The translations under genes were made by a program, and so were the position numbers. Below are positions 6,515 through 57,015 of a DNA stretch of 64,000 nt, one piece after another. This DNA comes from Octopus vulgaris (lineage: Eukaryota). The notes below the pieces were generated by a model, which was given only the letters and a program-made list of their open reading frames with translations, was not told where the DNA came from and ran no database searches. The stretch's first letter is position 1. Each line of letters begins with the position of its first letter. The stretch lies in assembly GCA_951406725.2 (NCBI GenBank), contig OX597824.1, forward strand, positions 310,001 to 374,000, given 5' to 3'.

Positions 6515-6578
6515 CCAGGTGGTGCTATTAAGTTAGACATGGCCTGGGCCAATAATGGCCGAAACCTATCAAAGTATC
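6515..6578 (+). mobile_element. 3' terminus of LINE family B with AAAGTATC tail
   Basis: Matches the reverse complement of ~15950-16012. Confidence 0.85.
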
Positions 6579-7246
6579 ATACATATATATATGTATATAT
6601 ATACATATATATGTAAATATATATATATACATATATATATATACATATATATATACATATATATATGTATATATATATACATATATATATATATATATAT
6701 ATATACATATATATGTGTATATATATATATACATATATATGTGTATATATATATATACATATATATATGTATATATATATATACATATATATGTATATAT
6801 ATATACATATGTATATATATATATACATGTATATATATATACATATATATATGTATATATATATACATATATACATATATATATGTATATACATATATAT
6901 ATGTATATATATATACATATATATATGTATATATATATACATGTATATGTATATACATATATACATATATATCTGTATATACATATATATATGTATATAC
7001 ATATATACATATATATATATATATATATATATATATATATATATATATATATATACATATATATATATATATTTACATATATATATATATATATATATAT
7101 ATATATATATATATATATATATATATATATATATATATATATATATATATATATATATATATATATATATATATATATATATATATATATATATATATAT
7201 ATATATATATATATATATATATTTACATATATATATATATATATAT
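6579..7246. repeat. Interrupted (TA)n microsatellite
   Basis: Seen directly. Confidence 0.98.
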
Positions 7247-9300
7247 TGATTGATTGATTGATGATTGATTGATTGATTCCAGTTCCAGCCTGTGAGCTGT
7301 GGCCATGCTGGGGCACCGCCATTTGGTGTTGCTACTTGGTTTTACTTCATGGGGCTTTCTAGCAACTGCTATTTGGTGCATGAGAGAGTTCGATGCAGCT
7401 GCCCTCATCTGCCCCTCCTGCCGTGAAGTTGGTTCATCTGGGACACCAGACAGNNNNNNNNNNNNNNNNNNNNNNNNNNNNNNNNNNNNNNNNNNNNNNN
7501 NNNNNNNNNNNNNNNNNNNNNNNNNNNNNNNNNNNNNNNNNNNNNNNNNNNNNGATCAGTTTTTTTCTGATGATTCGTTCCATGACCTTACTTATGTGTG
7601 ACGTCAGGGAGACTGGCCTGTAGTTTTTGGCCTCCGCTCTACTCCCTCCTTTGTGGATAGGGCATATGGTGCCTTCTTTTAGCGCCCTGGGCAGTTTACC
7701 GTTAGCCAAGGAACCACTGAAGAGCTTCTTCAGTGGTCCCGCTAGGGCATGCCTGCATGTTTTTAGGAGGACTGCTGGGAATCCATCTGGTCCAGCAGCT
7801 GAGTTTATTCTCATTTCTTCTATGGCAGATATTACATCCCTCTCTGTTATGTCTATGTGGTCGATGGTTGTTGTTTGGTTTTGGAGTGTTGTGGCATCAA
7901 AGAAAACTTCTGGGTTTGTGATTTGCATGTGCCCCAGAGGGGATGTGAACACACTTTTATACTGTTCCTTTAGTATTTCACTTATCCCTTGGGGGTCCTC
8001 AGTTAGAGAGCCCTTTTTATCAAAGAGTGGGCCAATCTTGCAGTGTACCGAGGTGGTTTCTTTCGCAAATTTAAAGAAGGCTTTAGGGTTTGTTTTAATA
8101 TTCTCTATGGCCCTGGCTTCTCTCTCTGCCCTCTCCTTCTCATAGGAAAGTTTGAGTGCAGTTTCCGTTTCAAAAAGTTTCAGGTGGAGTCCCTCATTGT
8201 TTCTCTGCCGTGCATTCAGTTGCTTCGAGAGCTTAGCTCTTCGCCTCATAAGTATTTTCCTGTCTCTGGGAATAACGTTCCTATGCCCGCTGGCTTTTTT
8301 CTCCGGGACAAACTTATGGCATATGTTCTGTATTGTTGTCATGAAATGTTGGAAATGTGTGTCGGTGTCTTGTGTGGTGATGAAGTCACTCCAGTCATGT
8401 TTTCGGATCTCTTCGTTGATCTTCTTCCAGTTTGCCTTATGGAAGTTTAGACTGGATAGGCCTGTGGTATTTTCTAATGGCTGCGTCTCAACTAAGTCTC
8501 TCATACCATATATCATTACCTCTACTAAGTTGTGATCTGAGAGAATTGTTGGTGTTACCATTATGTTGTGGATGAGCATCGGGTTGCTTGTGAAACAGAG
8601 GTCCAAGACATTCTCACCTCTTGTTGGCCGAAGCACTGCTTGCTCCATGAAAAACTTGCGTGTGAGAGCCAACAAGGACTCTGTCTGTCTCTGTTCAAGT
8701 GATGTCATTCCAGGGAGGAGATGGCCATCTGGCCATTTGACTTTCGGAAGGTTAAAATCTCCCAGCAGTAGAATGGTGTTACCCTGGTCCAGTTTGTCCA
8801 GGACTTCTTCTATTCTTCTGAGGCTATCTTCAAACACTCCTTCATGACTAGGGGTGTCTGGTGGCCGATATGTGACACATATTACTATTTTCGGTTGTTT
8901 CATGTGTACTATCAGTGTGTCACAGACTGAGTTTGAGTGTGTCAACAGTACTATGGGTGTGACATCTTCACGGACGTACAGGGCAACCCCACCATGAGTT
9001 CTTTCCTTCCTGTCTGACCGAAAAACAGTATACTTTGGTATGTGTATTTCTGCATCTGCTATACTGCTTGACAGGTGCGTTTCAGTCAGCGCTATGCATA
9101 TTGCATGGTTGCTTGTGCTTAAGTCCCTAAGGTAAGGAATTTTACTCATATTAGTGGGTTTCACCAGACCTCTGACATTCAGCAGAAGCACTGGTGAGAT
9201 ATTTGGGGTGTCAATAAAGGCTGACGGTGTGGCACCTGGGCTGGTGTCAGCGGTGGCCACCCTGGGTCCCTTGATTGTGGTGGTCTTGAGTGCTGTTGTG
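7247..9300 (-). mobile_element. LINE family A2 (CR1/L2-group APE-RT), 5'-truncated; most of RT falls in the gap; (AATC)n tail
   Basis: APE motifs LLNVRGL, LTETHL, YRPP, GDFN, PTRG..LDL, SDH; GPDG and NYRPVSLTS; the C-terminus and 3'UTR beyond the gap are homologous to 15015-15190. Confidence 0.93.
7454..7553. other. Assembly gap (100 N)
   Basis: N run; comparison with the A1 copy implies about 1.2 kb is missing. Confidence 0.99.
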
Positions 9301-10822
9301 TATATATATGTATATATATGTATATATATATATATGTATATATATATATGTATATATATATATGTATATATATATGTGTATATATATATATATGTATATA
9401 TATATATGTATATATATATATATGTATATATATATGTATATATATATGTATATATTTATGTATATATATATATATATATATATGTATATATATATATGTA
9501 TATATATATGTATATATATATGTATATATATATATGTATATATATGTATATATACATATATGTATATATATATGTATATATACATATATGTATATATATA
9601 TGTATATATATATGTATATATATATATGTATATGTATATATGTATATATATATATGTATATATGTATATGTATATATATGTATATATATGTATATATGTA
9701 TATATATGTATATATGTATATATATGTATATATGTATATGTATATATATGTATATATGTATATGTATATATATGTATATATGTATATATATGTATATATA
9801 TGTATATATGTATTTATGTATATATATGTATATATATGTATATATGTATATATATGTATATATGTATATATATGTATATATGTATATATATGTATATATG
9901 TATATATATGTATATATGTATATATATGTATATATGTATATATATGTATATATGTATATATATATATATATATGTATATATATATATATATATATGTATA
10001 TATATATGTATATATATATATATATATATATATATATGTATATATATATATATATATATATATATATATATATGTATATATATATATGTATATATATATA
10101 TATATATATATATGTATATATATATGTATATATATATATATATATATATATGTATATATATATATGTATATATATATATATATATATGTATATATATATA
10201 TGTATATATATATAGTATATGTATATATATATATATATATATATATGTATATATATATGTATATATATATATGTATATATATATATGTATATATATATAT
10301 GTATATATATATATATATATATATGTATATATATATATATGTATATATATATGTATATATATATATGTATATATATATATGTATATATATATATATATAT
10401 ATATATATATATATATATATATATATATATATATATATATATATATATATATATATGTATATATATATATATATATATATATATATATATATATATATAT
10501 ATATATATATATATATATATATGTATATATATATATATATATATATATATATGTATATATATATATGTATATATATATATATATATATATATATATATAT
10601 ATATATATATATATATATATATATATATATATATATATATATATATATATATATATATATGTATATATATATGTATATATATATGTATGTATATATATAT
10701 GTATATATATATATATGTATATATATATGTATATATATATATGTATATATATATATGTATATATATATATATATATATATGTATATATATATGTATATAT
10801 ATATATGTATATATATATATAT
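9301..10822. repeat. 1.5-kb (TA)n array irregularly interrupted by G
   Basis: Seen directly. Confidence 0.98.
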
Positions 10823-54420: not shown

Positions 54421-55245
54421 TGTTTTTTGCGGCAAAAACGTAAATGTGCGCAGCAGTATCAAACTCCTTTATTCGCTAAAAAAGAGACAACTGCCACAAA
54501 AGGAGCCCCAGCATGACCGCATCCCACTGACTTGGACTGTATAAACCGATGCATTTATAAATGCGGGGAAAAAAATTACCGATGGAAAATTATATAAAAA
54601 CCCCTCTGAAGATGCGGCTTTATAAACGCAGATTTCTCGGGAAAAAGAAAGACTTGTTTTTTTAACAGAATAAGTGAAGACCCTGCTGCTAAGAGTTTCT
54701 ATGTCTTCGATTTTTGTGTGATTTGTGCAATTTCAATATAAGCGTTTTTATGTTGTTGTCGGTAGCGATATGAAGGGAGATGGGGACTGAGAACATCGGA
54801 CAGATGGGTACTTGTGCACCTGAATGTTAGGACAAATAGAAAGTTTATTGAAAAGTTGATTGTGATACGGTGACAGTGGTTAAATTACGGCTGAAAAAAG
54901 ATACTCTCGTTGATGAAGAGTGAATTAACAGTCGGCTCGTTTACATTAGCAAAAATAAATTTATTTCGTCACGGTTGTTAAGAGTTTTGTTGGTTATATT
55001 CTAAACAAATAGTACATGGCTGTGAATGTGAATGACTGTGAGCGGGAAGAGAGAGAAAGAGGTCGAGAGAGAGAGAGAAATGAGAGACAGACAGACAAGA
55101 AAGAGAGAGAGACGGAAAAAATGGCCGTCCGTTTGCATGTACGGAATAATTCAATGTTTTGAACATAAGAAACAAATCGAGAAAAAATATCGGGAGAAGT
55201 ATTCACATATATATGAGGTTAGGTATATGCGCATACATACTTTAG

Positions 55246-56205
55246 TACATACATACACACATACATACATACATACATACATACATACATACATACATAC
55301 ATACATACATACATACATACATACATACATACATACATACATACATACACACATACATACATACACACATACATACATACATACATACATACATACATAC
55401 ATACATACATACATACATACATACATACACACATACATACATACATACATACATACATACATACATACATACATACATACACACATACATACATACATAC
55501 ATACATACATACACACATACATACATACATACATACATACACACATACATACATACATACACACATACATACATACATACATACATACATACATACATAC
55601 ATACATACATACACACATACATACATACATACATACATACATACACACATACATACATACATACATACATACATACATACATACATACATACATACACAC
55701 ATACATACATACACACATACATACATACATACATACATACACACATACATACATACACATACATACATACATACATACATACATACATACATACATACAT
55801 ACACACATACATACATACACACATACATACATACATACATACACATACATACATACATACATACATACATACATACATACATACATACATACATACATAC
55901 ATACATATACATACATACATACATACATACATACATACATACATACATACATACATACATACATACATACATACATACATACATACATACATACATACAC
56001 ATACATACATACATACATACATACATACATACATACATACATACATACACACATACATACATACACACATACATACATACATACATACATACATACACAT
56101 ACATACATACATACATACATACATACATACATACATACATACATACACACATACATACACACATACATACACACATACATACATACATACACACATACAC
56201 ACATA
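55246..56205. repeat. ~960-bp (TACA)n array
   Basis: Seen directly. Confidence 0.98.
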
Positions 56206-57015
56206 TGTATGTTTTTCTTTTCCTTTTTTCTATTTTTCATTTTATTTGTTTCAGTCATTTGACTGCGGCCATGCTGGAGCACCGCAAGTGTGCCTGTGTG
56301 AGCCTGTGTACGTATGTCAATGTATACATGTAGCCTTGTATGTGAGTATCTGTATAAGTATATAAATAAATATACAGGCATTTACACAGGCATAAACATG
56401 TACGTGAATATATATATATATATATATATATATATATATATATATATATATATATATATGTGTGTGTGTGTGTGTGTGTACACACACACACACACACACA
56501 CACACATATACATAGCTAGGCATCTGGGGCCGTATTGTACGTAGTATGACTGCAAGTAGGAGCGGGAATGTATTTAAGCTACATTTTCACTTGACAGGTA
56601 ATAAGATCACGAACACTTCACAAGTTAGTCTAAGTTTCCAAGTTTGAATGTCACATGCTGGCCCGTGGTAACTGGCATTCAGTGAAGATAATATATCGGT
56701 GCGAGTACGTGCATGCCCACGTGTGCCTAACGGAATATACGTCTGAAACGGAATATACGTCTGAAAGTGCTTATAGAAATATATCTGCGCATAGGTGAGT
56801 ACGCGTATGGGTGTGTATTTAGGCAAAAACATATATATTCAGATGAGTGTTTGGAAGTCACTTGACCCTGTTATCTCCCCTACTATCCCTCTAGCGTCTA
56901 ACGTCTGACCTCTGGCCTCTGACTTCTGCCTGAAGTCAGAACGCCATGATAGACCGTTAGCTCCTACACGCATTTTTTCTCTCTTTGTTTCTCTCCTTGT
57001 TTCTTTTCTGTGTAT

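Follow-up and report, generated by a model that had tools for sequence, protein, structure and literature searches.

The stretch of DNA considered here comprises 64,000 nucleotides of the Octopus vulgaris genome (assembly GCA_951406725.2, contig OX597824.1, positions 310,001 to 374,000 of the forward strand) and is referred to, at this full length, as the window. It contains copies of long interspersed nuclear elements (LINEs) of families named A, B and C, from a lineage that we presume to be CR1-like (the label comes from protein motifs; the trees delimit a strongly supported lineage but hold no row named CR1), together with copies of a short element, called here a short interspersed nuclear element (SINE). 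An earlier note on this DNA had proposed that these LINEs and the SINE end in a common 3' RNA motif, two successive hairpins followed by GAAAC, and that this motif identifies the LINE group that mobilises the SINE. This tail is the subject of the present analysis, and the elements concerned are as follows (positions in the window; nt, nucleotides; aa, amino acids; ORF, open reading frame; z, z-score of the predicted fold):

5935..6565, plus strand: chimera of an A-family reverse transcriptase fragment (5935-6515, 86% nt identity to A1) and a 50-nt B tail (6516-6565, copy B3)
7282..7321, minus strand: 3' motif of 'A2', a GGAAC variant, with (AATC)n and then (TA)n after it, possibly part of an A1-like copy
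7554..9296, minus strand: body of A2 ORF2, 59% aa identity to A1, with its tail beyond a gap of 100 N at 7454-7553
11735..12174, plus strand: 3' portion of an ORF1 whose 5' side is truncated at a TA tract, overlapping the start of ORF2 by 97 nt in another frame
12078..15122, plus strand: A1 ORF2, open, 1014 aa, with apurinic/apyrimidinic-type (APE) endonuclease and reverse transcriptase
15147..15186, plus strand: A1 3' motif, consisting of hairpin 1 with a G.G mismatch, hairpin 2 and GAAAC; z -2.3, pair probabilities 0.8-1.0
15187..15208, plus strand: terminal repeat of A1, of AAATCA type, which continues into a (TA)n tract
15315..15696, plus strand: B1 (family B), 5'-truncated, its tail decayed at 3/48 positions, lying tail-to-tail with B2 and parted from it by a TA tract
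15962..16011, minus strand: B2 3' motif (family B) with a longer hairpin 1, then (TATCAAAG)n and (TA)n; z -3.2
16012..16815, minus strand: end of B2 ORF2, 5'-truncated, 37% aa identity to A1, one frameshift
26132..26320, minus strand: S3, an older short copy, 69% identical to S2, with a decayed motif
32954..33150, minus strand: S2, a non-coding body of about 150 nt plus the motif, bounded 5' by a TG/TA tract, with no tRNA head
34988..35070, minus strand: S4, a piece of the body, cut inside hairpin 1
54495..54544, plus strand: degenerate motif ending an old family C element, fold lost; z +1.5
56248..56285, minus strand: S1, the tail motif only, with no body, beginning at the base of hairpin 1

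All six tail copies cited in the earlier note are present in the window, and four of them read exactly as it gave them, namely those of A1 at 15148-15186 (plus strand), A2 at 7282-7320 (minus), B at 6518-6565 (plus) and the SINE at 56248-56285 (minus). The second B copy is also there, but at 15962-16009 (minus), shifted by 1 nt from the approximate 15961-16008 first proposed, and the SINE copy at 32954-32994 (minus) is a variant, with a hairpin 1 loop TTCA/TCAT and a hairpin 2 loop of 6 nt. A looser scan, combined with the map of the LINEs, added three full or decayed copies and one cut copy: a decayed B tail at 15649-15696 (plus), a SINE tail at 26132-26170 (minus), the degenerate family C tail at about 54500-54538 (plus) and, at about 34988-35065 (minus), the SINE copy that is cut within hairpin 1. 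The core CATGGCC-N(8-22)-GAAAC occurs five times in the window against 0.03 expected, a count of five reached by none of 100 shuffles. A covariance model was built from nine window tails, and these nine, being its training set, score 41-63 bits; because the next-best site in the window scores only 12 bits, the window holds no further full copy.

The motif lies 17-25 nt (17-40 nt overall) past the ORF2 stop of LINEs that encode endonuclease and reverse transcriptase, directly before short tandem repeats. Such repeats are found at the 3' terminus of A, B and the SINE with a different unit in each, A having AATC-type and B TATCAAAG units, and the SINE a repeat distinct from both. A stem followed by GAAAC resembles the layout of a hammerhead ribozyme, of which hairpin 2 and GAAAC would then form stem II and the core, the ribozyme cleaving the RNA's 3' end. 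This explanation is scarcely credible, since GAAAC varies (GGAAC in A2, GAAGAC in the outside element L001 described below), and it was rejected: no CUGANGA-like core is found 5' of hairpin 2 in any tail, the scan returning three other sites only, and Rfam has no match in the window at gathering level, the matches around the SINE copies being sub-threshold and driven by microsatellites. Other sites with a hairpin and GAAAC, unrelated to these LINEs, are found at 10879-10925 (minus), 61994-62004 (plus) and 27063-27074 (plus). The first of these has a degenerate hammerhead-like layout and, from its resemblance, may be a Penelope-type end.

The ORF2 that the earlier note had read at 12078-15122 is indeed an open frame of 1014 aa from an ATG, with endonuclease and YADD motifs. 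Pfam recognises APE endonuclease and reverse transcriptase in it, and RNase H is not among the three families found, a trait common to neighbouring clades. In the linker between endonuclease (EN) and reverse transcriptase (RT), at about aa 360-375 of the translation, lies a conserved basic helix of the type IPR(D/E)RKILMR, which is kept across most of 27 relatives. As regards the ORF1 types described for the CR1 clade (PHD, RRM or esterase), the 5'-truncated ORF1 remnant of A1 shows a CCCH-type zinc finger only, below the Pfam cut-off, and the ORF1 (2-1555) of L002, another outside element, has by eye a Cys-rich PHD-like stretch followed by CCCH-like motifs. CCCH-type zinc fingers thus appear to be a feature of ORF1 in this lineage, and the term 'CCCH' occurs 0 times in the accessible part of a survey of ORF1 in the Jockey superfamily (PMC4120745).

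On the tail side of the gap, A2 has 88% aa identity to A1 over 33 aa, compared with 59% for its body. Because the 100-N gap splits tail from body and these identities differ, the 'A2' tail may belong to an A1-like copy and hence would not represent an independent family; the gap itself, 7454-7553, occupies the place of about 1.2 kb of expected RT. An internal 1.1-kb piece of A2, 7916-9033 (minus), is duplicated at 18189-19307 (plus) with 99.6% identity, between TA tracts, and is a recent duplication or an assembly artefact. The family C element (52940-54540, plus) is a heavily decayed relative without most of the RT, the two parts of which meet at a TG-rich tract.

Minimum free energy (MFE) folds contain both hairpins in A1, A2, B1, B2, B3, S1 and S2, the best preserved seven of the nine copies, with z from -1.0 to -3.2, hairpin 2 being shortened in B1 and hairpin 1 short in S1; the decayed tails of C and S3 have MFE structures without the two-hairpin fold. 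Within about 200 nt of context, the hairpin pair probabilities are 0.69-1.0 for A1, B2 and S2. RNAalifold recovers both helices from the nine-copy alignment, of which 82.9% of the cells are paired, as against 19-40% in slid registers. Changes on both sides of a pair are seen at 4 of the 13 pairs, three of them in hairpin 2 and the fourth at the closing pair of hairpin 1, and the covariation score of the alignment was reached by 4/500 shuffles.

The local alignment score of the SINE tail (copy S2) against the tails of A1, A2 and B2 was reached by none of 1000 shuffles. The earlier note had the tail identify the LINE group of the SINE, and this holds to the extent that the SINE tail is homologous to that of this LINE lineage, but no single family is identified. 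Hairpin 1 of the SINE is A-type (15/17 arm letters shared with A1, 13/17 with B2), while its hairpin 2 shares 4/8 arm letters with A1 and 4/8 with B2. As its hairpin 2 and its terminal repeat agree with those of neither family, A or B, the SINE is, on these tail comparisons, tied to the CR1-like lineage and not to one family. The donor of its tail was probably an A-side family that is not intact in the window. Family C was tried as donor and rejected, for although it has the GACT arm in common with the SINE, its tail agrees with S1 at 26/39 positions, compared with 30/39 for A1. The tail shared by SINE and LINE, with its two predicted hairpins, fits the established stringent LINE/SINE model.

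Among the short copies, S2, S3 and S4 have a non-coding body of about 150 nt in common, whereas S1, the 'SINE' at 56248, is the tail of about 40 nt alone. The 5' base of hairpin 1 is where both motif-only copies, B3 (6516) and S1 (56285), begin (n = 2), and fragments of the 3' end shorter than these were sought in the window without any being found. The short element is presumably one of the abundant tRNA-derived octopus SINEs OK, OR1 and OR2, or a relative; these were reportedly described by Ohshima and Okada in 1994.

As regards the lineage, the best named relatives are proteins of Argonauta hians (64% for A and 63% for B), which fits an octopod source, and those of B include next, at 52%, proteins of the ctenophores Bolinopsis and Mnemiopsis. 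A and B are found on separate deep branches, that of B holding the Bolinopsis and Mnemiopsis proteins. For comparison outside the octopus we used 80 (L001-L080) of 253 LINE-bearing stretches from prokaryote genome records (GTDB representatives); that 253 stretches in such genomes encode an animal-type LINE ORF2 points to eukaryotic contamination. Two of these 80, L001 and L002, belong to the present lineage, and L001 alone has its 3' end. A single clade of 31 rows, with an SH-aLRT (Shimodaira-Hasegawa-like approximate likelihood ratio test) support of 99, includes both A and B, for which its relative from Argonauta stands in, L001 being on the side of A, and in another tree A1, L001 and L002 form a clade with support 100. 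The trees were quick searches with SH-aLRT only, and that of the 80 loci was made without L064, L069 and L078, which are short matches. Searches of plasmids by tblastn returned only group II intron RTs, and those of PDB the RTs of L1, R2 and group II introns, results that are irrelevant to the tail.

L001, with 40% aa identity to A1, has 40 nt past its stop a hairpin with an internal mismatch, a second hairpin, GAAGAC and a tandem repeat. Its stem letters agree with those of A1 at 17/25 and of A2 at 18/25, the arms of hairpin 2 being identical to A2, and of the 793,342 positions that the 80 loci comprise, only 2 agree at 17/25 stem letters or more. The local alignment score of the A2 and L001 tails was reached by 1/1000 shuffles. 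A structural descriptor matches L001 (as do 8/2000 shuffles), and of its 21 matches in the loci this is the sole one at most 100 nt after an ORF2 stop. The tails of the other loci, among those listed, end differently; one outside family (for example L019, L026 and L065) has a different tail of its own, also ending in tandem repeats. Because L001, a relative on the side of A, keeps the layout, the tail is most likely old, lineage-specific and inherited by A, B and L001. A and B would share it most simply by common descent, and a link between the LINEs is therefore to be expected.

A and B could also share hairpin 1 by template switching, either between the two or from a donor common to both, their ORF2 proteins cross-mobilising both families and the SINE. 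A and B do not group as sisters in our trees, an octopod clade of both being rejected by the approximately unbiased (AU) test (p = 0.0015, the group having been named after seeing the tree), and the ctenophore relatives of B point the same way. Hairpin 1 agrees between A and B at 14/17 letters, compared with 10/17 for L001, which is nearer to A on the tree, but over the four arms the agreement of A1 with B2 (18/25) is about that with L001 (17/25), and hairpin 2 tracks the tree (L001 has 7-8/8 letters of A and 5/8 of B). The chimera at 5935-6565 bears on the same question: its B tail is identical to B2 at 48/48 positions, the whole element lies inside TA/TG tracts and its junction shows short homology, which makes a template switch between the RNAs of two LINE families possible. 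It could also be a 50-nt B insertion beside a broken A copy. We accord tail exchange a minor chance, and inheritance is the reading followed below. Tail-less fragments of both families are also present, one of family B at 20782-21500 (minus), with 86% nt identity to B2, and one of family A at 40951-42040 (minus), with 83% to A1.

Taken together, the two-hairpin 3' end that the SINE shares with this CR1-like LINE lineage is in our view quite likely a cis signal for the ORF2 protein, whose enzyme the SINE would borrow. The ORF2 protein would pick its RNA through the two adjacent predicted hairpins. From experiments on the L2 clade, its basic EN-RT linker may be expected to bind the stems, after which the protein would nick the target, prime on the terminal repeat and copy the RNA. 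The SINE, exploiting the LINE ORF2 through the borrowed tail, would owe this tail to a template switch involving an A-side family as donor, while A and B would hold it by ancient descent, with hairpin 1 as the common element and with hairpin 2 and the terminal repeat variable between families.

Several results weigh against this proposal. The compensatory swaps claimed earlier for hairpin 2 stand as two-sided changes at 3 of its 5 pairs, but the measures that resist relatedness among copies (of five such, two were run, counting pairs and pair types) were reached by 261/500 and 462/500 shuffles and are not significant, and the covariation comes down to about four changes that are independent, in copies related to one another. 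The inner seven pairs of hairpin 1 show one-sided changes only and no two-sided ones; its G.G mismatch, which the earlier note described as kept, is found in 8/9 copies (A.G in the ninth) but for this reason is not separable from conservation of the letters. As hairpin 1 is mostly letter-conserved, its support is weaker than that of hairpin 2. The name 'SINE' is partly presumptive, because no copy has a tRNA head: a polymerase III (Pol III) head derived from tRNA, 5S or 7SL was found in none of the four short copies, all of them 5'-truncated. The outside support consists of one tail only, that of L001, and the descriptor and template that found it were shaped after viewing it, the descriptor recovering only 4/9 of the known tails. 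Run over the 80 loci, the covariance model built from the window copies gave three matches at E up to 10, none at a LINE tail, and missed L001, and local alignments between the tails of A1 and B2 (81/1000 shuffles) and of A1 and L001 (117/1000) are not significant.

Some of these results would be expected if the tail were a recognition or priming element read at the level of sequence, with hairpins that are incidental to GC-rich, self-complementary letters. The letters of hairpin 1 are nearly invariant, the pair-type measures fall short of significance and the A2 tail folds no better than shuffles (36/200). By contrast, hairpin 2 has been rewritten in three lineages with its pairing kept, B has extended hairpin 1 by new pairs, and the upper stem of L001 differs and yet pairs, so that we consider this explanation unlikely.

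The lack of a tRNA-derived head in all four short copies, and of any body in S1, also bears on what these copies are, since they could be non-autonomous or truncated derivatives of a family C-like LINE rather than true SINEs, in which case there would be no partnership; ARAGORN detects no tRNA in the window, and the GACT arm of hairpin 2 is common to C and the short elements. However, the body of about 150 nt shared by S2, S3 and S4 matches no LINE ORF in the window, the C tail is no nearer to S1 than the A1 tail is, and octopus genomes are reported, in the part of the source available, to be rich in tRNA-Core and tRNA-Deu SINEs (PMC8967140). This derivation from C is highly unlikely in our view, and a SINE using the LINE tail as a signal remains the preferred explanation.

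The preferred insertion target would be the (TA)n tract. Each of the five 3' ends of young LINEs leads straight into a (TA)n tract; such tracts make up 11.5% of the window, but because these five ends occupy just three tracts the preference is suggested only. Long (TA)n tracts enclose the young LINE copies at both ends (6578-7245, 15208-15317, 15731-15936 and 16808-18193), and a tail-to-tail arrangement occurs twice, for B3/A2 and for B1/B2, the latter an inverted pair with 84% identity. Possible causes of this nesting are a targeting of TA microsatellites and an expansion of the tract when the element inserts. Elsewhere in the window, an ORF with a zf-RVT domain at 37969-38700 (minus) is the remnant of a different LINE clade, and long imperfect inverted repeats at 56988-57386, 58207-58549, 39825-40800 and 33676-34002 are possibly miniature inverted-repeat transposable elements (MITEs) or the ends of DNA transposons.

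The arrangement is best compared with the L2 elements of fishes, of which the passages available describe eel UnaL2 with UnaSINE (PMC1636434) and zebrafish ZfL2-1 and ZfL2-2 (PMC4176376). As in these, a 3' stem-loop with a mismatch in its stem is held in common and followed by short terminal repeats; UnaL2 requires a bulge and a U-U mismatch within its stem (PMC1636434), and in zebrafish ORF2 binds the cognate 3' stem-loop via the EN-RT region, of which a conserved part reads the stem and a variable part the loop (PMC4176376). The octopus ORF2 also has a basic region between EN and RT, here a candidate tail binder. Unlike the present elements, those of eel and zebrafish belong to the L2 clade and have a single stem-loop with a function shown by assay, whereas here the lineage is CR1-like and carries two predicted hairpins plus GAAAC. 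A short 3' untranslated region (UTR) with a hairpin and a tandem repeat is a CR1 trait and is found here; according to the part of PMC4316615 consulted, amniote CR1 likewise has a short 3' UTR, a conserved hairpin proposed as RT recognition site, a tandem repeat end and heavy 5' truncation, but it has one hairpin and a conserved octamer microsatellite, in contrast to two hairpins and a family-specific repeat unit here.

SINE tails shared with CR1-group LINEs are, from the accounts available, already published for molluscs (bivalves). BivaV-SINE2 and BivaCORE-SINE1 with CR1-14_CGi (SINE/CR1-Zenon), and Amar_SINE-2 with a CR1, show 3' homology to the CR1 group, predicted stem-loops and compensatory changes (PMC4824008, PMC4758252, PMC11481361); the tail sequences printed for the bivalve CR1/CR1-Zenon SINEs differ by eye from the present motif. 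The relevant passages of these three papers contain no octopus pair, the words 'partner' and 'tail' are absent from the accessible text of the octopus repeat papers PMC13282606 and PMC8967140, and 'octopus' and 'squid' from that of a review of SINE/LINE pairs (PMC3747384). Four motif strings searched in the literature led to three unrelated papers only. Exchange of tails is known for SINEs (PMC5786205, in part). The present LINE-SINE pairing was not found in the literature searched, which excludes Repbase, Dfam, SINEBase and the Okada-lab papers of 1994 and 2005, and no partner LINE for any octopus SINE was found there.

About 11.6% of the Octopus vulgaris assembly consists of SINEs, with recently active families that are mostly unclassified, and CR1 families have been recently active in this species (PMC13282606, in the passages available). 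The principle of the shared tail is itself long established, and the tail described here is a new instance of this known arrangement, real, well placed and probably functional. The open ORF2 of 1014 aa and the candidate signal of 40 nt make the pairing directly testable, and a layout common to families with only 37% identity lends itself naturally to testing which part of a tail confers general and which family-specific recognition. More tentatively, and with considerable doubt on our side, one tail signal may have been kept since the split of A and B as a common key across diverged co-resident families, allowing cross-family copying, that of the SINE included, and tail swaps of which the chimera at 5935-6565 would be an example. 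If this is true, the motif of 40-50 nt would be mobile by itself, with (TA)n tracts as its target, the recognition code would be lineage-wide rather than family-strict, and the engine of a major octopus SINE expansion would be named.

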